The translations under genes and the position numbers were made by a program. The notes beneath the pieces were generated by a model. That model worked only from the letters and a program-made list of their open reading frames with translations, ran no database searches and was not told where the DNA came from. From a phage, in sequence record PZ452584.1: 64,000 nt of DNA. One strand, written 5' to 3'. This document shows positions 6,702-60,921 of the stretch, piece after piece. Within the stretch, counting starts at the first letter, position 1. Each line of letters begins with the position of its first letter.

Positions 6702-7242
6702 ATAAAAAATCCAAACTAGGAGAATCGTCTACAACACTTTTCTTTTCAGCCCCCGGTGTTCTATAGGTTGATTCTTCGTAATGCGTCATTTTATCGTAGA
6801 TGTCTTGAATAAAAGTTTCATCTACTAACGCAACCATATCGTCGTCACGGCTGTCATAGACATTGTGAACGAAGTAACTATATTTCTTTGCAACTTCCTT
6901 ACGTTCTTTTTTAATACGTTGGACGAATGCATTAAAACAAGCTTGAGTTATATACGCATGTGGGTTTTTATATTTCGTTTCATCAAAATTATGAAGCCCC
7001 TTAATAGAAGCTTCTATACCATCTGCAATCATTTCTTGTTTCCAAGACTGGGTGTATCCTGAAAAGTTGAAACGTTTAGATAAGCCTTCTGCAATAAGCA
7101 TAATGGCTAATCCAATAGTATCATTCTGACGAACTACTTTATTTGGGTCTTTATTATTTGCTAATTCTGTTTTCCAATCAATAATAGCTTGTAAAAGCTC
7201 TTTATTGTTTACGTAATTATATTTAGGCTTAGTTTCTGACAT
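6685..7242 (-). CDS. 55: Late-transcription sigma factor gp55
   Basis: [24 protein letters not shown]... recognised as T4 gp55; start set at the Met giving 185 aa (track ORF extends 2 codons upstream to 7248). Confidence 0.9.
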
Positions 7243-14409: not shown

Positions 14410-14667
14410 TTATTCCTTAATTCCTAGTACTTGTTTAAAAGTCTCGTCGTAATCAAGACTTTGGCCCGTTTGTTCTTTATGTTTGTATATAATATCACTT
14501 ACTTCTGATAGCATATTTTTATATGAACGAGTTAAAGCAGATTTAAGCACGCTGTATCTATCAGGAAATTTACCGTGTTCATTATAATAAGCTATTGCTA
14601 ATTCACGGACTGCCTTTTCGGCAGTCTCCATATATTCTTTACGCTTTGTCATTTTCTTCTCGGTCAA
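14410..14667 (-). CDS. Hypothetical protein
   Basis: Track ORF. Confidence 0.4.
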
Positions 14668-14956
14668 ATCGGTGTTTACAATGGCGACATTTATAACGAA
14701 GATTATTAGTCTGCCAATGGACTAATTGCACCTGTTCAGTTCCACATTCAGGGCAATTAGGAACGTTTTTAGAAGCTCTTTCACGTCGCTCAACCATAAC
14801 CATAATAGCGTCCCAGGCTGGCGGTTTAAAATCTAAATCGTCACAACCATGAATCTTTCCACGCATTTCCAAATCGTCTTCTTCACCAGCCATAATAATT
14901 TTAATTAGACTAGAATTACTTGAAGCTGCAATATCTTCTAATAAACGCTTTTTCAT
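14639..14956 (-). CDS. Hypothetical zinc-ribbon protein
   Basis: C-terminal CPECG...(16 aa)...CRHCKH pair of Cys motifs. Confidence 0.4.
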
Positions 14957-15879
14957 TTCAATACCTCAATAGCATTACGTAAACCATTTGCTTTGGCGGT
15001 TAAAGTCTTAAGAACTTTAGTATGCTCTTCAATCTGTTTTTCAACTTCAATCAAACGGGCACTGAGATATTCGCGTTCTTCTTTCATATTATCATTCCCA
15101 TGATTGGGCTTTGGCGTAGGTTTAAATTTATTAGGGTCCTTTAACTTAATAACAACTTTAGTTTCAAACAGTGAAAGACCATAATTCGTATTATCATCAA
15201 AGGATTCAACTACGTCCATTTTAGACAATAACGTATGAAGATTATAAGTCAAAGAACGAATCGTTTTATTATGTTTATTAGCTTCACATGGTTTCATATA
15301 TGGAAGATTTTTATATATTTCATGCGGAGCACAAACAATAATTGACAATTCAAATGGTCCATTCTGTGATGATGGAATGAATTTAGCCGTAACCCAATCT
15401 TTTACATTTACATTAATAGTACGATCATCGCCATGACAAAACAGTCTACGAGAATGCTTAAAAAGCATATTCACATTATTATTAAATTCGTGTGAAAACT
15501 CACTGGCAAATTTTTCTTTACTATTTTTAGAAAACCATTCTTCTAAATAAGTTCTTTTCACGTCATTAATAATATTAAATGTAACAACATTATCATTTGA
15601 TACATTAGTCTCAATGTAGCTTGGATACATAAATTTTTTAACATTATTAACAGCTATCACAGAAGATAGTAATCGGGAACGTTTGAACCACTCGAGCAAA
15701 GAACCAAGAGAATGTGAATACGCATTTTGTGTATCTTTACAAATATGGTTTTCCCATCCAATATAGTCTAAAAAATCACGAAGAATATTATTGATTACTG
15801 CTCTGTGTCCTATCTGATAATTACGATGTTTAGTAATAAGACTGTCAAAATAATCAATATAATGTTTACGAGTTTTCAT
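14953..15879 (-). CDS. Hypothetical protein with C-terminal coiled coil
   Basis: 308 aa; last ~40 aa strongly helical/heptad-like (EEREYLSARLIEVEKQIEEHTKVLKTL...). Confidence 0.5.
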   Translation of the reverse strand: MKTRKHYIDYFDSLITKHRNYQIGHRAVINNILRDFLDYIGWENHICKDTQNAYSHSLGSLLEWFKRSRLLSSVIAVNNVKKFMYPSYIETNVSNDNVVTFNIINDVKRTYLEEWFSKNSKEKFASEFSHEFNNNVNMLFKHSRRLFCHGDDRTINVNVKDWVTAKFIPSSQNGPFELSIIVCAPHEIYKNLPYMKPCEANKHNKTIRSLTYNLHTLLSKMDVVESFDDNTNYGLSLFETKVVIKLKDPNKFKPTPKPNHGNDNMKEEREYLSARLIEVEKQIEEHTKVLKTLTAKANGLRNAIEVLK

Positions 15880-15931
15880 GTTCTTCTCACTTGGTTAATG
15901 ATTTATACTCCGAGCCATCCTTGGCTTTAAA

Positions 15932-16984
15932 TTACTTAATTAACTGTAAAGCTTGTTCCAAACTATCAAGACGATTAACAGATTCTTCCCAAATCCTTTT
16001 AGCCTGCTCATATTCTTTCTGCGCTTTATTAGAAATTTCTAGAGCTTCTTTATAAGCTTTTTCTAATGCAATAACTTCTGGACGAATTTCTACCGGTTCA
16101 GGTGAATCATCAAGATTATCCATTAGTTCCTCAAGGGTAGTTTCTTCTTTAGGAGTATTCACAATTTCATCACATTTTTGTTGGTAAATTTCTTTATCAG
16201 TAGGTGAGTACGCGCACTTTACTTCACGAAGACTAATTACAATTTTATATCCTTCCCAGCCGCATATATTCTTAAAAGGATATGTATGAATATTTTCTAC
16301 TGTTTCCATACAAAGTAATGCGGTCTCTAATTGACGAGTTATAGTGCTAGCAATTGAGAAAAATTTATTAATGTTCTTTTGGTTAGTTTCTGGTGTAAAA
16401 AATCCATAATTCACAAAAATAGATACTTTATTTTTATCAAGTTCATATTCTTTTATGATAATCATATCAGAAGCCAAAGGATGAATTTGACGATAATCGC
16501 CATAACATAATTTAGAAGCTGATTTTAGAATCTGTCCTTTGAAAAGTCTGAAATTACTAATCCAACGACGAGTAAAAATATTCTCAGGGTCTTCTTTATT
16601 ATTAAGATGATAAGAATTAACATCACCGAACCAATTATATCCTACTACATCTTTGGTTCGTTTAATTTCTTTCCCAAAATTACCAAGAATATCCCGATTA
16701 ACCAAATATGAAAGAAGACGAGACTCTTTAAAGGTTTTCTTGATAACATCTTTATCTACACGGCTAGAAATTTTACGAATTTCATGAATAAATTTAGTAG
16801 AAGAAACAATACTTGCATCAACACTATTGAGCCATTGATTGATAATAGAAAGAACGATATTTTGACCAAACATCGGTATAGCTTTATCATCAATAACGCT
16901 ATTGAATGATTTGATATATTCGTTACGAGTCATATTAATCTCCTCAGTAGAAAGTAAGAACATTATACCACATCCTTGTGGCAA
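15932..16984 (-). CDS. Hypothetical protein with C-terminal coiled coil (start probably at internal Met near 16933)
   Basis: Promoter-like sequence overlaps the first 17 codons of the track ORF; C-terminus LEKAYKEALEISNKAQKEYEQAKRIWEE... Confidence 0.5.
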   Translation of the reverse strand: MPQGCGIMFLLSTEEINMTRNEYIKSFNSVIDDKAIPMFGQNIVLSIINQWLNSVDASIVSSTKFIHEIRKISSRVDKDVIKKTFKESRLLSYLVNRDILGNFGKEIKRTKDVVGYNWFGDVNSYHLNNKEDPENIFTRRWISNFRLFKGQILKSASKLCYGDYRQIHPLASDMIIIKEYELDKNKVSIFVNYGFFTPETNQKNINKFFSIASTITRQLETALLCMETVENIHTYPFKNICGWEGYKIVISLREVKCAYSPTDKEIYQQKCDEIVNTPKEETTLEELMDNLDDSPEPVEIRPEVIALEKAYKEALEISNKAQKEYEQAKRIWEESVNRLDSLEQALQLIK

Positions 16985-16990
16985 AGTAAA

Positions 16991-18010
16991 CTAGTTCAGT
17001 GCATTTAGTGCATTGTTCAGTTTAGAACGTTGCTTTGTCAGATTTTGAACCCTTGACTGAGCTTGTTCTAACACCTTTTCAGCTTCTAGCACTTCATTGG
17101 TCGCTTTAACGAGTTCATCATCTACTGCCTTAAGAGACTTCTCAATCGCGTCAGCGTGCCATTTTTCTACAGGTTTAAAATTTGAATTTTCAGTAGGAAG
17201 AAAACTCACTTTATTAAGTTTACATGCATCTATATTGCTTGAGCTATACATCCAAAATTTAGGATCGTTTGATAAGTAATTGGATAAATTTAAGTTATCT
17301 TGCACTTCCTGCTTTTTCTCTTGCGGGACTTCGTCCTTTCTCAAAAAATCGTATTTAAATGAAACGATCATATCAAGTTCATATGATGTTGTATCTAACT
17401 TAAATCGTTCAAAACGAGGTAAAATCTTAGATTGAACAGCAGCAACAACATCCATATACTTAAATGCTTCTGTCAATTGTGATTTAAGGCATTCACAAAT
17501 TGAAAGAGAATTTTTTGTATTAGGTTTAAAGCTAATTCGTGCAGTTCTATTATTTTCTTTTAACGGTCTTACTTCCATCTGAAGAGTATAACCATCAAAT
17601 TTCAGGTTCTTTAAGTTAATATCAGAGCCTTTTAATCGACTAGCAGTAGACAAAATTTGCTTTAATTGTCTACGGAACAGAGCAATAAATCTCCATTCAA
17701 TACGATAATGATTTGGATTGAAAAATCCAGATGATAAATCGACCTTACTTTGACCAACGCCTTGAACAAATAGAGGATTTTTATAATCAATAGTTTTACA
17801 GAAATCGGTGAGCTGCTCACGAGCAGTTATTTGTGTAATATACCCCGCTTTACTAAAATGACGTAACCATTCACTGTTGTTCATATATTTAAAGTGAATA
17901 TCACGATTAACTTTATCAGGGTCTAAATTATTTTGGCACAAAAATGTCATAACATCACGAGTATAGCTGGCATTACGAACCATATCTTCAATTTGAGAAC
18001 GAGTTTTCAT
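16991..18010 (-). CDS. Hypothetical protein with C-terminal coiled coil
   Basis: 339 aa; C-terminus ...EVLEAEKVLEQAQSRVQNLTKQRSKLNNALNALN. Confidence 0.5.
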   Translation of the reverse strand: MKTRSQIEDMVRNASYTRDVMTFLCQNNLDPDKVNRDIHFKYMNNSEWLRHFSKAGYITQITAREQLTDFCKTIDYKNPLFVQGVGQSKVDLSSGFFNPNHYRIEWRFIALFRRQLKQILSTASRLKGSDINLKNLKFDGYTLQMEVRPLKENNRTARISFKPNTKNSLSICECLKSQLTEAFKYMDVVAAVQSKILPRFERFKLDTTSYELDMIVSFKYDFLRKDEVPQEKKQEVQDNLNLSNYLSNDPKFWMYSSSNIDACKLNKVSFLPTENSNFKPVEKWHADAIEKSLKAVDDELVKATNEVLEAEKVLEQAQSRVQNLTKQRSKLNNALNALN

Positions 18011-18018
18011 GGTGTTCC

Positions 18019-18933
18019 TTAAGATTTAAGTAAATCAACAATTTTAATTAACTTTTCACGCTCAGATTTAGCTTTACTACTCAATCCAGATAGTCTGAAA
18101 ATTTCATCATCATATTGTTGAATAGAAATATTCAGCTCTTCAATTTGCTTATTAAAATAATCAATTTGTTCAGAATGTTTTTCGTTACTACGAACTGGTA
18201 CAGGTTTTGTAGGCAATTTAGTTGAACTGAATTCATCCGGGTGATAAATTAAAATACAACTTGAACCAATAGGGCATTTTGCACCAGATGAATATTCTAA
18301 TGTTCCGGCTTCTTTTAAAACTTCAAAAGCTAAACAGAGATGATGCCCCATATTAACATAATCTGTAGAGTGAGCTCTGACGTAATAATCATCTCCACGA
18401 GTGCTAAATTTAAAGCATTTAAGGTCTTCTGTATTATTAGTTTTAAAAATCATTTGTTTATCTAGACCTTTAGCCAATCGAGCACCTAATGCTAATAATC
18501 GTCGTTGATTTTCCCACAAATCCGCAATCATTTGATCGAATGATAATTTTGGCATTAGTCGACCATAAAGGTCATATCCTTTATTATAATTACGAAGGAT
18601 TTCACTCGCGTTAATACGAGACAATGCTCCAATTTTATTAAGGGCTTTCATAATGCGATTAGATAAACTCATTCCAGATCCGTTTGTTCGCTGTAAATGT
18701 TTTTCTAATCCAAATCCAATATCAACTTTAAACTTATCTAAAATTTCGGCGTGAACATCTCTGTCAATAACATTCAAATCCAAAGTTGTGTTAAATCTAT
18801 GAAAAAATTTATCTGGCTCTCCACGACGAAATACAGTCCATTCATTCATCATTTTTTTATTAACTAAAGATTTAATTACTGCATTGACATTATTAATTAC
18901 TACTGACATATTTTCCTCACTCAATTTTACCAA
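18019..18933 (-). CDS. Hypothetical protein with C-terminal coiled coil
   Basis: 304 aa; C-terminus ...QIEELNISIQQYDDEIFRLSGLSSKAKSEREKLIKIVDLLKS. Confidence 0.5.
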   Translation of the reverse strand: MVKLSEENMSVVINNVNAVIKSLVNKKMMNEWTVFRRGEPDKFFHRFNTTLDLNVIDRDVHAEILDKFKVDIGFGLEKHLQRTNGSGMSLSNRIMKALNKIGALSRINASEILRNYNKGYDLYGRLMPKLSFDQMIADLWENQRRLLALGARLAKGLDKQMIFKTNNTEDLKCFKFSTRGDDYYVRAHSTDYVNMGHHLCLAFEVLKEAGTLEYSSGAKCPIGSSCILIYHPDEFSSTKLPTKPVPVRSNEKHSEQIDYFNKQIEELNISIQQYDDEIFRLSGLSSKAKSEREKLIKIVDLLKS

Positions 18934-19318
18934 TTACGCGGAATAAGATTGAACAGACTATATAAGTACCACATATAGATTGAACTAATGCCATTCCAAA
19001 GAACCAAACAATATTATCAAACCATGTCTGTTTTACGTCGAAAGGACGTAAACTTACAGTAATATTATCACCTTTTTCTATTGAAGAATACATCTCTGGG
19101 GAAATATATTCACTAAATCTATAACCGTCTTTGAGTTCATATACAGCAATAAACGATAAACTAGACCCCTTTCCTTGAGTTCCTGTAAGGGTATTAACTA
19201 CAGTAACATCATAATCTTTATAATGCATATAATCATTAATTGCGTAATAACCATATGCAATTACTATACATAAACAACATATCAATAAATTCAATCTTTT
19301 AATTATCAACTGTTTCAT
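18917..19318 (-). CDS. Hypothetical membrane protein
   Basis: 133 aa with N- and C-terminal hydrophobic segments. Confidence 0.4.
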   Translation of the reverse strand: MKQLIIKRLNLLICCLCIVIAYGYYAINDYMHYKDYDVTVVNTLTGTQGKGSSLSFIAVYELKDGYRFSEYISPEMYSSIEKGDNITVSLRPFDVKQTWFDNIVWFFGMALVQSICGTYIVCSILFRVIGKIE

Positions 19319-19373: not shown

Positions 19374-19901
19374 TTATGCGAGTACCGTCTTTAACCGTTC
19401 TTCAAACTTCCGAAGAGTGTTCTGGCGTTCAGCTCTTTGCTTTTTGTAAGTTTCAATACGCTCTGAAATGAGAGTGTATCGTTCATTTACTGATTCTTTC
19501 ATAAAATCAGGAATTTCACGAGAAGCTTTAATCTCGTCAAATTTATCAATAACAGCTTGCTCTTCAGCAATTAAGTTATCATACATCAAAATATCTTTCT
19601 TGATGAACTCAATATCTTCTTGAGTTACACGAGATAATTTAGATGCTTTATCCTTTTTGTACTGTTCGTTAGTATCACGAGACCAGTGTAATGTACGATT
19701 TTTATTCGTATTTTTGTAAATTTCTACAATACCAATCTCATCGATAATAACGATCCAATTCCAACGGGATTTATAAATTTGTCCTCCATCAACCGTGATT
19801 TCACCTCCGATTGAGATGTCATTAAAGAACTTGCTTTGTGCTTCAGATTTAAATTTACCATCGTTGTAATTTACCAGGTTGAAAATATCTTTAGCATTCA
19901 T
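19374..19901 (-). CDS. Hypothetical protein
   Basis: Track ORF 19374-19961 trimmed to the Met (MNAKDIF...) downstream of the promoter at 19925-19960. Confidence 0.45.
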   Translation of the reverse strand: MNAKDIFNLVNYNDGKFKSEAQSKFFNDISIGGEITVDGGQIYKSRWNWIVIIDEIGIVEIYKNTNKNRTLHWSRDTNEQYKKDKASKLSRVTQEDIEFIKKDILMYDNLIAEEQAVIDKFDEIKASREIPDFMKESVNERYTLISERIETYKKQRAERQNTLRKFEERLKTVLA

Positions 19902-20366: not shown

Positions 20367-21347
20367 TTATTTCAGAAGAGTAACCTCAGCGATTTCTTCC
20401 CAGCCGTTTTTGTCGGTCATAATAAAGTCAGCAAGATAAAGAGCAGTACGCAGTGAAACATTGCGTAAACGATTAACATTGACTTTCATCCATGATAATG
20501 CTTTATAAGTTTCTTCATCAGAAAGACCACGCTTTTGCATCATGTCGGTTGAAAGAATAACATCTTCAACCCTGACCATAATTTCTTCATTAGTGTGAAC
20601 ACCCAAATCCAAATAAACTGAGCGGGACACTAATGCTTGTAAATGTGGAGCAAGTTTAGTACCACGGTCTAATTCGCGGTCAATGTCAACGTTTGTGATA
20701 AAAACAATCGTTCCTTTAAATTCAAACTCACGCTCAATGCCTTTTTCTTCTAAGTAAGAAGATGCAGTGCTCCAGCAGACTTTACGGGTCTCTCCAGTGT
20801 CCAGAGCGGCTTTTAGAAGATTAAGAATATCCATATCAGAGAAAACATCCACATCATCAATCAAAAGGACAGAATTCTCTTCACGATTATTCCAAAGCTG
20901 CTCATAAAGACCGATACCGGAGATTTTACCGTTAATGCTTTTATATTCAATGTATCCATTATCATTTGCTTTATTTAAAGCTTTATCTAAAGAATACGTT
21001 TTACCAATACCCGCCGCACCAGAGATAATTAATGAACGAATGTTTCCGTTAATAATACCATTCGTCATCATTCCCATAACATTAAATCTTTTATTAATGC
21101 GGGTTTTCATATCTTCATATGATTCTTTAACTTCTTCAACTTTTACACCATCATATGAAATGTCTGATTTGTAAACCCAAACACCGCGACGTTTACCGTC
21201 AATTTCAACAAAAACTTTACCATCTCCTTGTGCATCTACCGGAGCATTATCTGGGAACCATTCACCTAAGAGCTCAAAAGTTCCAGAGATTTCTTTACCA
21301 AAGTAGATACCCTTATTGATAGTTACAGTTTTCATTTTATTCTCCAA
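20367..21347 (-). CDS. P-loop ATPase (AAA-like)
   Basis: Walker A IISGAAGIGKTYS and Walker B VLLIDDVDVF. Confidence 0.6.
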   Translation of the reverse strand: MENKMKTVTINKGIYFGKEISGTFELLGEWFPDNAPVDAQGDGKVFVEIDGKRRGVWVYKSDISYDGVKVEEVKESYEDMKTRINKRFNVMGMMTNGIINGNIRSLIISGAAGIGKTYSLDKALNKANDNGYIEYKSINGKISGIGLYEQLWNNREENSVLLIDDVDVFSDMDILNLLKAALDTGETRKVCWSTASSYLEEKGIEREFEFKGTIVFITNVDIDRELDRGTKLAPHLQALVSRSVYLDLGVHTNEEIMVRVEDVILSTDMMQKRGLSDEETYKALSWMKVNVNRLRNVSLRTALYLADFIMTDKNGWEEIAEVTLLK

Positions 21348-21458: not shown

Positions 21459-21944
21459 TTATTCCATTTCTATTATATGCATGTTCTTTTTGCTATCAAA
21501 ATATATGTTTTTAACTGTTAACTCCGAATTAATTGGCAATAAAAACTCTCTTTCATAATCTACCATACAAAGGTTATCATAAAGCTTGTTAAGCTTATCA
21601 TCGTCAGTTTGGCCAGATTCTTCAATTGCGATTAAATTTTCTAAAATGTCAATCATAGCAGTCGAATAGTCAAAAACGTTTGCATTTTTTAACACTACTA
21701 AAACATTAGTCATATAGCGTTCTGCAGCAAACGTTTCAGCTATATGAGACTCACTGCTAAAGGAAGTTATTCTTTTAAATTTGATTCTCCTATTAACTTC
21801 AAACTTATAAGATAGTACTTCCTCTATTGTAAGTCCTCTAAAAAGCACGTCTTTAATCTCAAGTTTGTCTTTAATGTAATCATTAACACGCTTATGATTA
21901 AAATCATTAATTTTGTTGCCAAGGCATTTCATTAAAATATGCAT
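21459..21944 (-). CDS. Hypothetical protein in PeSL-flanked cassette; candidate ADP-ribosyltransferase-like fold (motif-level only)
   Basis: Track ORF 21459-21974 (TTG start) trimmed to first ATG; FRG ... ITSFSSES ... YEREFLLP motifs in R-S-ExE order. Confidence 0.45.
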   Translation of the reverse strand: MHILMKCLGNKINDFNHKRVNDYIKDKLEIKDVLFRGLTIEEVLSYKFEVNRRIKFKRITSFSSESHIAETFAAERYMTNVLVVLKNANVFDYSTAMIDILENLIAIEESGQTDDDKLNKLYDNLCMVDYEREFLLPINSELTVKNIYFDSKKNMHIIEME

Positions 21945-22071: not shown

Positions 22072-23085
22072 TCATTTATAATAACTTCGGTGGTTTTCAA
22101 GATACACCTTCTCAAGGAAGTCATCCCAGAAACCCATGTCTACTTTTTGCTGCATACCGTTCTTAGAAGCTTCAGTAGATGCTGCTTCTACTTGATCGAC
22201 CACATCTTCCAAAAACTCTTGAACTGTTTTAAATGGATGCTTACCCAACTTCACGTCGAGAATAAATGGAGCATCTTGGAGTGGATAAACCAAGTCACCA
22301 GTTTTGTAAATTTCCAATAGTTGGAGTCCACCACGACAAGCATGACTCAGAGCTTTCCAGTCAATACCTTCATTGGCTTCGGCCTTACGAGCACGTTCAC
22401 CGTATTCAGCATCAAGTTTATTCAAAGACTGCTTAAGCTCAATAAGAGAAAGCGTTGTCTGATATTTACGACCCAACACAGTGTAGAACGTTTGTGGGCC
22501 TGTTTTCTCATGATTATGGAACACCCATTCACAGAATTCGTTTTCTGGAAGACGATGCTTAATATCTTCAACTTTAGTACGACGCTGCTTAATGGAACCG
22601 TCTTCTTGGTAATCAACCCATTGCTCAGGGATTTGATTAACTACTTTCAATACATCGCGTAATGCAGCCAAACGAGAACCCTTGACACCGTATTTAGAAG
22701 CTTGCTTGCGAACATATCCTAAATAAGATTTCATGTTAGTCGTATAAAAACGAGAACGGTTGTCTTGAATAAACTTCCACACATCAGGCAAATCAGATTT
22801 AACCACTAATTCAGGTGGAGTGTGAAGCATATCCAATGCTACAGTTTCACCATCTGCTGCTAATTTAAAGAAATACTTAAGACTATACAATTCGTGGTCA
22901 ATATCATCTTTAGTGTTTTTAGATGATGTGTTGTTGGTGTTTTTACTCATGTGCTCTTTGACATTTCCGATAAGAATATCGCGAGCAGGAGGAACAAAAA
23001 TTTCTTTAAAATCTACATCAGATTCTGGGGTAGAAGTTCCATAAAGATGACTACCAAAATAGCTTTTCATTACTGTTTTCATCAT
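22072..23085 (-). CDS. Pol-beta-superfamily nucleotidyltransferase-like protein
   Basis: N-terminal YFGSHLYGTSTPESDVDFKEIF matches GS-x(9-13)-DxD nucleotidyltransferase signature; 337 aa. Confidence 0.5.
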   Translation of the reverse strand: MMKTVMKSYFGSHLYGTSTPESDVDFKEIFVPPARDILIGNVKEHMSKNTNNTSSKNTKDDIDHELYSLKYFFKLAADGETVALDMLHTPPELVVKSDLPDVWKFIQDNRSRFYTTNMKSYLGYVRKQASKYGVKGSRLAALRDVLKVVNQIPEQWVDYQEDGSIKQRRTKVEDIKHRLPENEFCEWVFHNHEKTGPQTFYTVLGRKYQTTLSLIELKQSLNKLDAEYGERARKAEANEGIDWKALSHACRGGLQLLEIYKTGDLVYPLQDAPFILDVKLGKHPFKTVQEFLEDVVDQVEAASTEASKNGMQQKVDMGFWDDFLEKVYLENHRSYYK

Positions 23086-41865: not shown

Positions 41866-42562
<697 letters not shown>

Positions 42563-42563
<1 letters not shown>

Positions 42564-59463: not shown

Positions 59464-60921
59464 ATGATTGAATTAAAAGATTTACCTTTTGTTGATAGCG
59501 TTCCTGGCGAAGGTCAGGAACGTATTTCATGGATTAAAAATGGTGAAGAAATACTAGGAGCTAGTACTAAGTATGGAAACGATGGATCAATGAATAGACC
59601 AACTGTTTCCGTGTTTAAAAACGTCGAAGTTCTTGATGAAAATGTGGGAATTCTTAAAACTGCTGTTGAAACATCACAGGAAGATATTAAAACAATTCAA
59701 GGCATTTTAGATGTATCAGGAGATATAGAAGCACTATCGCAGATCAGCGTTAATAAAAATGATATATCAAATTTAAAGACACTCACAAATGAACATACTG
59801 ATATATTAAATGGTACAAATACCACAGTTGATAATATTCTTTCTGATATTGGTCCATTTAATTCGCAAGCAAATTCAGTTTATAGAACGATTAGAAATGA
59901 TTTGTTATGGATTAAAAGGGAATTAGGACAATATGCTGGGCAAGATATTAATGGTCTTCCTGTTGTAGGAAATAGCAGCACGGGGATGAAGCACCGTATC
60001 ATTAATAATACAGATGCTATAACTTCCCAAGGAATACGTCTAAGTGATTTGGAAGAAAAATTTATTGAATCTGATGTAGGTTCGCTTACAATCGAAGTAG
60101 GAAATCTTAGACAGGAATTAGGGCAAAGACCACCTTCATTTAGTGAAAGCATATATTCACGTGTGCATAATTTAGATCAATCTCAAATTAATCTTAGTTC
60201 CGAAATTAAATCTATCAAAACTTCTATTGGATATCCAGGAAATACTTCAATAATCACAGATGTTAACACTAATACCCAAGAAATTTCAGCTTTAAATGAT
60301 GAACTAAATAAAAGCGGAGGTATTAAACAGCGATTGACTGTCATTGAAACATCAATTGGCTCAGATGATATTCCTTCTAGTATTAAAGGTCGAATTAAAG
60401 ATAATACAACATCTATTGAGTTTTTAAATGGAATTGTTGGTGAAAACACTTCATCTGGACTACGAGCAAATGTTTCATGGCTAAACCAAATCGTTGGAAC
60501 TGATTCTAGCGGAGGTCAACCTTCTCCTCCGGGGTCTCTTTTAAATAGAGTTTCAACTGTTGAAACCTCTGTTAATAGACTTAACAATGATGTTCAAAAC
60601 TTACAAGTTGAAATTGGTAATAACAATTCTGGAATTAAAGGACAAGTTGTAGCATTAAATAAATTAGTAAATGGAACAAATCCAAATGGTTCAACTGTCG
60701 AAGAACGCGGATTGACTAATTCAATAAAAGCTAATGAGACTAACATTGCTTCAATTAATCAAGAGATTCGTAGCATTAAAAGCGATGTATCTTCATTACA
60801 AAGGGATGTCCAGACTTTACAGGAAGCCGGTTATATTCCTGAAGCACCAAGAGATGGGCAAGCTTACGTTCGTAAAGACGGCGAATGGGTATTGCTTTCT
60901 ACCTTTTTATCACCAGCATAA
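59464..60921 (+). CDS. wac: Fibritin (whisker antigen control protein)
   Basis: 485 aa, long coiled-coil body, C-terminal foldon [27 protein letters not shown]. Confidence 0.9.

Follow-up and report, generated by a model that had tools for sequence, protein, structure and literature searches.

Identity and gene content of the locus

The sequence studied here is a 64,000-nucleotide stretch of phage DNA (record PZ452584.1), referred to as the window, in which four consecutive open reading frames (ORFs) on the minus strand correspond to the nrdC.3, nrdC.4, nrdC.5 and nrdC.6 genes of phage T4. The window is AT-rich (32-39% G+C), shows a negative GC skew over its first 45 kb, and carries the ORFs listed for positions 12-22 kb on the minus strand. 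A first-pass annotation had described the four ORFs, each of 300-350 amino acids (aa), as a diversified paralog family with dissimilar bodies and a shared C-terminal helix. All four are present and consecutive; the extents given for nrdC.3 and nrdC.5 stand and the starts of nrdC.4 and nrdC.6 were corrected, so that the products measure 308, 333, 339 and 296 aa. The coding sequences and a putative promoter among them are as follows:

14953-15879, minus strand: nrdC.3, paralog 1, 308 aa (PHROG 1435, e-value: 7e-102; linked to nrdC.4 by hhalign)
15932-16933, minus strand: nrdC.4, paralog 2, 333 aa, ATG at 16933 (PHROG 1435, e-value: 3e-168)
16962-16990, minus strand: sigma-70-like promoter between nrdC.5 and nrdC.4 (TTTACT, 17-nucleotide spacer, TG-TATAAT), a consensus match only
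16991-18010, minus strand: nrdC.5, paralog 3, 339 aa (DUF7235), ortholog of the anti-Dsr1 gene of T4
18019-18909, minus strand: nrdC.6, paralog 4, 296 aa, ATG at 18909 (PHROG 2257, e-value: 3e-151)

The nrdC.4 start is placed at the ATG at 16933, with GAGGAG six nucleotides upstream, and that of nrdC.6 at the ATG at 18909, preceded by GAGGA; the TTG codons at 16984 and 18933 taken earlier as starts over-extend both frames. The two ATG codons are consistent with the T4 annotation and with the beginnings of the PHROG profiles, the PHROG 1435 match to the long nrdC.4 ORF beginning at residue 18. The promoter was found by a consensus scan, with 10/12 consensus matches and the TG extension.

The 3,981-base region containing the four ORFs is matched by 507 GenBank phage records, with Shigella phage ESh18 as the top match (97.6% identity). 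Phage T4 aligns across all 3,981 bases at 96.9% nucleotide identity, and the genes under the match are named nrdC.3, nrdC.4, nrdC.5 and nrdC.6 in the T4 records. The flanks are those expected for T4, with nrdD, gene 49, pin, nrdC, nrdC.1 and nrdC.2 flanking the array at one end and nrdC.7 to nrdC.10 at the other; nrdC, nrdC.1, nrdC.2 and nrdC.7-nrdC.10 keep the T4 order. High identity, together with the preserved gene order from nrdC.2 to nrdC.7, identifies the four ORFs as orthologs of the T4 nrdC.3-nrdC.6 set, and the identity to T4 and the expected neighbours place the window, on sequence grounds, in a T4-like phage, a Tequatrovirus. The four ORFs are known, almost uncharacterised T4 genes and belong to the pre-replicative accessory genes of the phage. 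T4 is the best-studied virulent phage, and about half of its genes are without a known function.

The nrdC.5 product matches the Pfam family DUF7235 (PF23882) over residues 1-339 (Bitscore: 386.7; e-value: 1.1e-115; gathering score: 30 bits), and BLASTP finds its closest database relatives at 96% identity. Homologs sharing 90% or more identity with nrdC.4, as well as the nrdC.3-derived part of database protein P0056, are tagged PF26897 (Phage_T4_Y04OP), and the 96-97% identical homologs of nrdC.6 are tagged PF26899 (Phage_T4_Y05B). The window proteins fall into PHROGs 1435, 2351 and 2257, with e-values of about 1e-102 to 1e-168. The nrdC.3 and nrdC.4 proteins already form one family in PHROG and in the newer Pfam, and Pfam splits the four proteins over three separate families without an assigned function; a search of NCBIfam with the four proteins returned no meaningful match.

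The products of nrdC.3-nrdC.6, as well as that of nrdC.10, are labelled as thioredoxin in many GenBank and UniProt records. No thioredoxin or glutaredoxin family of Pfam or NCBIfam is matched by any of the nrdC.3-nrdC.6 proteins, and this identity is rejected for lack of either signature. The label seems to have spread from the locus names of the form nrdC.x.

Homology of the protein bodies

The earlier description of the bodies as dissimilar holds for pairwise BLAST only. The best pair among the four, nrdC.3 and nrdC.4, shares 24% amino acid identity over 275 residues (e-value: 0.002), and 5/6 pairs are not significant. Attempts to link the families by BLAST or by profile-to-sequence HMMER searches failed, with cross-family matches scoring 3-11 bits, and profile-profile comparison with out-group sequences was therefore needed. 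Family alignments were built from protein searches and compared profile to profile with hhalign, and the C-terminal 62 residues were cut in order to exclude the coiled coil as a cause of similarity.

With full-length profiles, nrdC.3 and nrdC.4 are clearly linked (hhalign: 99.2%; e-value: 6e-19), the similarity of nrdC.5 to nrdC.3/4 is suggestive and that of nrdC.6 to the others is not significant. After removal of the tails, nrdC.3 matches nrdC.4 with an e-value of 2.6e-14, and nrdC.4 matches nrdC.5 over 143 columns at corresponding positions (e-value: 8.4e-6). A pooled tail-less profile of nrdC.3, nrdC.4 and a Klebsiella-phage relative matches nrdC.5 at 92.9% (e-value: 3.8e-7). To reach nrdC.6, its clade profile was enlarged with the single-copy gene of Enterobacter phage CIP9, genes of Yersinia phage fHe-Yen9-01 and four distant relatives from an exhaustive HMMER search, with nrdC.3, nrdC.4 and nrdC.5 sequences and all tails left out. 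This enlarged profile matches the pooled bodies of nrdC.3/4/5 and the Klebsiella-phage relative at 97.0% (e-value: 9.9e-11), nrdC.4 alone with an e-value of 8.6e-8 and nrdC.5 alone with an e-value of 1.4e-6.

Real families used as negatives in the same run gave e-values of 0.38 (nrdC.8) and 0.09 (nrdC.10), and the controls overall ranged from 0.08 to 0.84. Reversed and column-shuffled profiles scored 10-20, the real comparisons 32-54. Furthermore, when 216 ORFs taken from 22 loci were searched with body-only hidden Markov models, no non-family ORF was matched at an e-value below 0.05. By these profile comparisons, the bodies of nrdC.3-nrdC.6 are homologous along their whole length, so that the array reflects duplication of whole genes and not the attachment of one helix to unrelated bodies. 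The proposal of a diversified paralog family is borne out, since tail-less profiles link all four proteins and the motifs described below are collinear in every copy; of the two alignment approaches, BLAST finds the nrdC.3/nrdC.4 pair only and profiles join all four.

It could be argued that the four are unrelated ORFs that each happen to end in a helix, as is common in AT-rich phage genomes encoding Lys-, Glu- and Leu-rich proteins. The insignificant BLAST pairs and the division over three Pfam families would fit such a coincidence, as would the tail models described below, which barely detect a family omitted from their construction. However, the body-only profiles give e-values of 1e-10 to 4e-7 where negative, reversed and shuffled controls give at least 0.08, the order of motifs and of secondary-structure elements is the same, and the tail model misses fibritin and nrdC.8 and matches gp57A weakly. 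Chance resemblance is refuted by the body profiles and their controls as far as sequence statistics reach, and we consider it extremely improbable. The comparisons instead support merging three database families without an assigned function, together with single-copy genes of other T4-like genera, into one superfamily. The window proteins match the PHROGs directly and are linked to PF26897 and PF26899 through the tags of their homologs; the databases keep these families apart, and the merger is made here.

Shared architecture and structure models

A joint alignment of the four proteins shows three motifs, a variable proline-containing linker and the tail, arranged in a common order. The first motif, S-x-x-[LI]-S-x3-A-x3-L-x2-F-G, starts at residues 65, 68, 52 and 90 of nrdC.3, nrdC.4, nrdC.5 and nrdC.6, the second, [AS]-x-[RK]-L-x2-G-x2-R, at residues 138, 134, 118 and 137, and the third, L-x2-a-l-x2-m-x2-V, at residues 208, 196, 173 and 185, respectively. 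The second is the core motif, with the family signature hydrophobic-x3-[AS][SGR][RK]-L-x2-G-x2-R, and was located through the superfamily alignment at:

15418-15468, minus strand: core motif of nrdC.3, MLFKHSRRLFCHGDDRT
16487-16534, minus strand: core motif of nrdC.4, QILKSASKLCYGDYRQ
17612-17659, minus strand: core motif of nrdC.5, QILSTASRLKGSDINL
18454-18501, minus strand: core motif of nrdC.6, RLLALGARLAKGLDKQ

Residues A123, S124, R125 and L126 of nrdC.5 are invariant in the family, as are G142, A143, R144, L145 and G148 of nrdC.6.

AlphaFold2 monomer models were made for nrdC.5 and nrdC.6 only. In both, N-terminal helices are followed by two strands, a helix, two further strands, a disordered linker and the tail. 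The nrdC.6 model has a predicted local distance difference test score (pLDDT) of 77 and a predicted template modelling score (pTM) of 0.63, and that of nrdC.5 is poor, with a pLDDT of 50.7 overall and below 50 in the body. The structure prediction that the first-pass annotation had proposed as a check for a shared fold thus yields the same order of elements in two models, with an unreliable nrdC.5 body. Models and alignment together suggest a common architecture comprising an N-terminal helical region, a beta-beta-alpha-beta-beta core after the second motif, a disordered proline-containing linker and an amphipathic C-terminal helix with heptad periodicity.

Sequence searches of the PDB with all four proteins gave no match at an e-value of 0.01 or below. 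A Foldseek comparison of the nrdC.6 model against the PDB returned de novo designs and H-NOX domains (e-value of at least 0.027; template modelling score of at most 0.27), which were rejected, and the Foldseek result for the nrdC.5 model was set aside, as not even its own family was recovered.

The C-terminal helix

Each of the four proteins ends in a predicted helix:

14956-15087, minus strand: nrdC.3 helix, residues 265-308 (heptad score 24.5, rank 6/61; period 3.45)
15935-16078, minus strand: nrdC.4 helix, residues 286-333, ending SLEQALQLIK (period 3.50, p 0.0025)
16997-17170, minus strand: nrdC.5 helix, residues 281-338, ending KLNNALNALN (AlphaFold2; period 3.50, p 0.0065)
18025-18174, minus strand: nrdC.6 helix-kink-helix, residues 246-295, ending KLIKIVDLLKS (AlphaFold2; pLDDT 81-89)

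The helices span 44-58 residues and are longer than the roughly 40 residues first proposed. Residues 281-338 of nrdC.5 are predicted as a single helix (block-mean pLDDT of 61 for 281-290 and 77-92 from 291). The nrdC.6 tail is predicted as two helices, 246-273 and 278-295, with a kink at a conserved glycine between them that is also found in the relative from an Enterobacter phage.

Heptad character was scored with a simple scheme of our own over 61 ORFs of the window, and the four tails rank 2nd, 6th, 7th and 10th. The positive control, the known coiled coil fibritin, which we take to be encoded by the ORF at 59464-60921 (plus strand) from its length and position only, ranks 1st. Periodicity was assessed by Fourier analysis of family-averaged hydrophobicity with permutation p-values. 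A peak at 3.45-3.50 residues was obtained for nrdC.3, nrdC.4, nrdC.5 and the Enterobacter-phage relative, and the power at 3.5 residues exceeds that at 3.6 in all four tails and in this relative. The heptad periodicity is significant in nrdC.4, nrdC.5 and the Enterobacter-phage relative (p 0.0175 for the last). The long C-terminal helix and its heptad character are thus supported by models and sequence periodicity, more strongly in two of the four, and a heptad signal of the kind expected for the coiled coils of the first-pass annotation appears in the ranks and, for nrdC.4 and nrdC.5, in a significant period of about 3.5, with a weaker showing in nrdC.3 and nrdC.6.

Two further window proteins provide a comparison. 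The gp57A protein (42321-42563, minus strand; Pfam GP57, e-value: 5e-51), which we take to be a tail-fibre assembly helper forming an all-helical oligomer, served as an internal coiled-coil control. The 175-aa nrdC.8 product (19374-19901, minus strand; Pfam Phage_T4_Y05D) likewise has a heptad-like helix at its C-terminus (score 25, rank 5/61), and its body and tail are unrelated to those of the four paralogs; it was rejected as a family member (hhalign e-values: 0.06-0.35; tail-model e-value: 4.4).

A helix of similar length ends the proteins of all nine family groups. The tail is entered through a proline-rich stretch, often containing [FY]-K-P, and ends in K-L-x-x-A-x-x-x-L-K. Within ortholog groups it is better conserved than the body, with identities of 0.65 against 0.39 for nrdC.6, 0.53 against 0.29 for nrdC.5 and 0.56 against 0.37 for the most diverged members of nrdC.4. 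The tails of the paralogs within this genome are 8-22% identical. A tail model built from all groups left fibritin and nrdC.8 of the window unmatched and matched gp57A weakly; when single families were left out, the omitted nrdC.4 tail was not found by the model from the other families. Conservation within orthologs and poor matching between paralogs argue for an inherited, constrained module that has diverged between the copies, and not for a single common docking peptide. The shared helix first proposed is accordingly common to the four in position, length, heptad pattern and end motif, and not in sequence.

The tail may have a role other than self-association. As the main alternative, it could contact the target, for instance in the groove of a tetratricopeptide repeat (TPR) or alpha-solenoid sensor, or pack on its own body, with the body stabilising the protein or touching the target at another site. 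Helices and extended peptides are common ligands of TPR domains, and Dsr1, the defence protein countered by nrdC.5, carries a TPR sensor. The tail is also the best conserved part within ortholog groups, as for a binding surface, the 8-22% identity between paralogs is what would be seen if each had its own target, and the high pLDDT of the nrdC.6 tail and the pTM of its model are compatible with packing on the body. However, a 3.5-residue period, and not 3.6, over 44-58 residues is typical of coiled coils, and in nrdC.5 the helix is confidently predicted where the body is not, and we consider these alternatives quite unlikely. Self-association of the tail as a coiled coil would explain why the tails are conserved within orthologs yet differ between paralogs.

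Relatives in other phages and history of the array

Foldseek searches of BFVD with the nrdC.6 model recovered its own family first and then uncharacterised proteins of 304-374 residues (e-values: 1.9e-7 to 1.4e-3; 10-16% identity) from T4-like phages of Enterobacter, Pectobacterium, Acinetobacter, Erwinia, Yersinia and Klebsiella. Some of these are single-copy genes at the same genomic position. A single gene of this type occupies the interval from nrdC.10 to nrdC of Acinetobacter phage fHyAci03 (335 aa; its length and phage agree with the BFVD match A0A345AUV5), Enterobacter phage CIP9 (338 aa) and Klebsiella phage PMBT63 (324 aa). Two copies are present in Yersinia phage fHe-Yen9-01, three in Mosigvirus phiC120 (nrdC.6-, nrdC.5- and nrdC.3-like) and in phage NC-G (nrdC.6-, nrdC.5- and nrdC.4-like), and four in the Tequatroviruses; the Aeromonas phage locus examined has none. 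That other T4-like genera have one copy or two at this site suggests that the T-even phages expanded the gene in tandem. On the simplest reading, the array goes back to a single ancestral gene, lying between nrdC.10 and nrdC as in other T4-like phages (Straboviridae), that was duplicated in tandem within the T-even lineage.

The family appears narrow. The exhaustive HMMER search with the nrdC.6 profile recovered 15 cluster representatives among 1.84 billion proteins, and pattern scans of IMG/VR for relatives of nrdC.3 and of the single-copy genes found near-identical loci only. The weakest match to the nrdC.6 profile, the 732-aa protein P0238 (e-value: 7e-4), consists of approximately eight near-identical repeats of about 90 residues and aligns in eight matched stretches to part of the tail region only; this match is probably spurious, owing to the repeats or to coiled-coil character. 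Among the BFVD matches of the nrdC.6 model, the highest-ranking is P0122 of Shigella phage Sf25, an NrdC.6 homolog of 378 aa that exceeds the usual length by about 82 residues and may result from read-through or from fusion to nrdC.7, which lies upstream.

Diversification and loss

When the window copy of nrdC.3 is compared against GenBank phages by tblastn, the matches fall into bands of 90-99% identity (137 records), 60-80% (359 records) and below 60% (155 records), and the divergent representatives examined are those of the Tequatrovirus RB5, at about 62%, and of the Mosigvirus phiC120, at about 57%; by these identities nrdC.3 exists as discrete allele classes. Gene-wide ratios of non-synonymous to synonymous substitution rates (dN/dS) between the window genes and three close relatives are 0.19-0.44 for nrdC.3, nrdC.4 and nrdC.5, as compared to 0.00-0.12 for nrdD, 49, pin, nrdC, nrdC.1, nrdC.8, nrdC.9 and nrdC.10.

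Copies are lost from the array by deletion, as two rearranged loci indicate. In phage ACG-C40 the array is deleted from early nrdC.5 to late nrdC.3, so that only the initial 71 codons of nrdC.5 remain, together with a piece of the nrdC.3 tail that is out of frame (6802-7213 of its locus). Database protein P0056 is a fusion of nrdC.5 (residues 145 to about 265) to nrdC.3 (about 138 to 308) without nrdC.4, with a short N-[KN]-V microhomology at the junction. Variation, loss and fusion of this kind are features of dispensable, fast-changing accessory genes.

Two neighbours of the array are also variable. The highest dN/dS of the region (0.31-0.53) belongs to nrdC.7 (18917-19318, minus strand), which encodes a small predicted membrane protein. 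The gene for the zinc-ribbon protein nrdC.2 (14639-14956, minus strand) is mosaic, with 71-93% identity to close relatives and a synonymous rate (dS) of up to 1.1.

Function of nrdC.5 and a proposed role for the array

The window ORF at 16991-18010 is the ortholog of T4 NrdC.5 (Swiss-Prot Y05A), with DUF7235 at full length. In an experimental evolution study, a T4 clone with compensatory deletions was unable to plate on Escherichia coli ECOR17, and deletion of the host dsr1 gene restored its plating; plasmid-borne dsr1 protected K-12, and plasmid expression of T4 nrdC.5 restored infection by the deletion phage on dsr1+ cells (PMC9391042). The authors described nrdC.5 as an uncharacterised early gene and proposed no mechanism (Srikant, Guegler and Laub, eLife 2022, PMC9391042); they treated the lone gene, with no mention of the flanking paralogs or of the C-terminal helix. 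In a 2026 preprint, Dsr1 is described as a SIR2 effector joined to a sensor of TPR repeats, for which Avs7 has a homologous counterpart; the trigger identified is the major capsid protein from a T1-like phage, and approximately 9,000 defence proteins are reported to have a Dsr1-type sensor with various effectors (PMC12803255). Literature searches turned up no subsequent study of how nrdC.5 acts, and nrdC.3, nrdC.4 and nrdC.6 appear there in genome notes only.

Since nrdC.5 disarms the sirtuin defence Dsr1 and the four genes are paralogous, nrdC.3, nrdC.4 and nrdC.6 become candidate counter-defence genes, and we infer such a role for them. We hold, with slightly better than even confidence, that the locus is a tandem array of four full-length paralogs that act as counter-defence specificity variants and carry a self-association helix. 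Each paralog would be produced early in infection, and would bind and block its own host immune sensor before the trigger appears. Most likely, NrdC.5 would bind the Dsr1 sensor, or otherwise lock Dsr1, ahead of the late capsid protein; the other paralogs would act likewise on other sensors, and each would associate with itself through its C-terminal helix, forming a coiled coil.

Several results weigh against this proposal. The functional evidence concerns nrdC.5 alone, with no mechanism published in the literature searched. Self-association of the tail as a coiled coil is a conjecture. The heptad signal of nrdC.3 (p 0.12) and that of the kinked nrdC.6 tail (p 0.10, peak at 2.95) do not reach significance, and tail models built with one family left out are marginal, with e-values of 0.003-0.005 for the omitted nrdC.3, 0.05 for nrdC.6 and 0.65 for nrdC.5. 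As the body of nrdC.5 is poorly modelled, the shared fold relies on one good model and on sequence profiles. Finally, nrdC.6 evolves as slowly as the neighbouring genes (dN/dS 0.09-0.10), unlike an arms-race gene, and the gene-wide dN/dS is below 1 for all four. Diversification under host pressure, as first suggested, is in line with the requirement for T4 nrdC.5 against Dsr1, the nrdC.3 allele classes, the dN/dS of nrdC.3-5 and the deletions, and not with the slow change of nrdC.6.

In another explanation, the four are paralogs whose general function is not counter-defence and that serve as host-takeover or regulatory binders of host or phage machinery, the effect on Dsr1 being a side effect or a recent specialisation. 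A defence phenotype is on record for 1/4 genes, nrdC.6 is conserved like its housekeeping neighbours, and the retention of single-copy relatives at the same position in distant T4-like genera fits a core role; PDB sequence searches and the Foldseek search with nrdC.6 also gave no similarity to known anti-defence proteins or solved structures. However, the genes are dispensable and have been lost in natural and evolved phages, non-synonymous change in nrdC.3-5 is 2-10 times faster than in the neighbouring genes, nrdC.3 has discrete allele classes, and the copy number differs between genera. Such dispensability, fast change and copy variation are typical of accessory host-range genes, and we regard a takeover role as unlikely.

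A more specific form of the counter-defence proposal is that the family consists of inhibitors of pattern-recognition receptors that expanded in T-even phages, each copy blocking a different branch of the large Dsr1/Avs7 family of TPR sensors for the major capsid protein, with a fold not seen in solved structures and a coiled-coil tail that sets the oligomeric state. This appears improbable to us; if true, the array would be a viral counterpart of the diversification of host immune receptors, and would account for part of the host-range differences among T4-like phages.

Sensor blocking, the working model proposed here for NrdC.5, has a precedent in DSAD1 of SPbeta-group phages, which neutralises the defence-associated sirtuin DSR2 by binding its sensor region and blocking recognition of a late structural protein (PMC10981675, PMC11087589). 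The target is DSR2 and not Dsr1, and no similarity to DSAD1, whose structures are in the PDB, was found at an e-value of 0.01 or below in sequence (the four proteins against the PDB) or in fold (Foldseek with nrdC.6).

A second parallel is offered by the T4 internal proteins IPI, IPII and IPIII, a dispensable T-even family whose members vary in their bodies and share a short module at one end. This module lies at the N-terminus and is a capsid-targeting peptide by which the proteins are packaged and injected; T-even phages differ in these genes. The nrdC.3-6 products are likewise a small dispensable T-even family with a terminal module, and at least some internal proteins counter host defences, with IPIII being a host-range factor (PMC9391042). 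They differ in that the nrdC.3-6 bodies are homologous and that their terminal module is a long C-terminal helix; furthermore, plasmid-supplied NrdC.5 works in the host, so that, unlike the internal proteins, it need not be packaged.

The genes were known already as T4 ORFs, with one published counter-defence role, and represent no new kind of system. Added here are the merged superfamily, a history of its expansion, a map of domains and motifs, and three named candidates. The nrdC.5 gene is among the few accessory genes tied to a specific bacterial defence, and if it is one of four paralogs, three more genes become concrete counter-defence or host-range candidates, for which the map of body, linker, tail and [AS]x[RK]LxxGxxR motif can guide truncations and swaps.

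Other genes near the array

The P-loop ATPase encoded by nrdC.10 (20367-21347, minus strand) is conserved far more widely than its neighbours. It is found in 1,312 phage records, including Vibrio, Aeromonas and Acinetobacter phages and several jumbo phages, among them PA5oct, 121Q and Atu_ph07, and shows weak matches to STAND/AAA families of Pfam. Between nrdC.10 and nrdC.11, which encodes an RlaP-type nucleotidyltransferase (22072-23085), lies an ORF of 161 aa (21459-21944, minus strand) that matches PHROG 832, 'RNA polymerase ADP-ribosylase' (e-value: 1e-23). It is absent from the RB5 locus and two other compared loci, and near-identical to a gene of ACG-C40 annotated as ModB. By sequence similarity this ORF looks like an extra Alt/Mod-like ADP-ribosyltransferase inserted in the accessory region.

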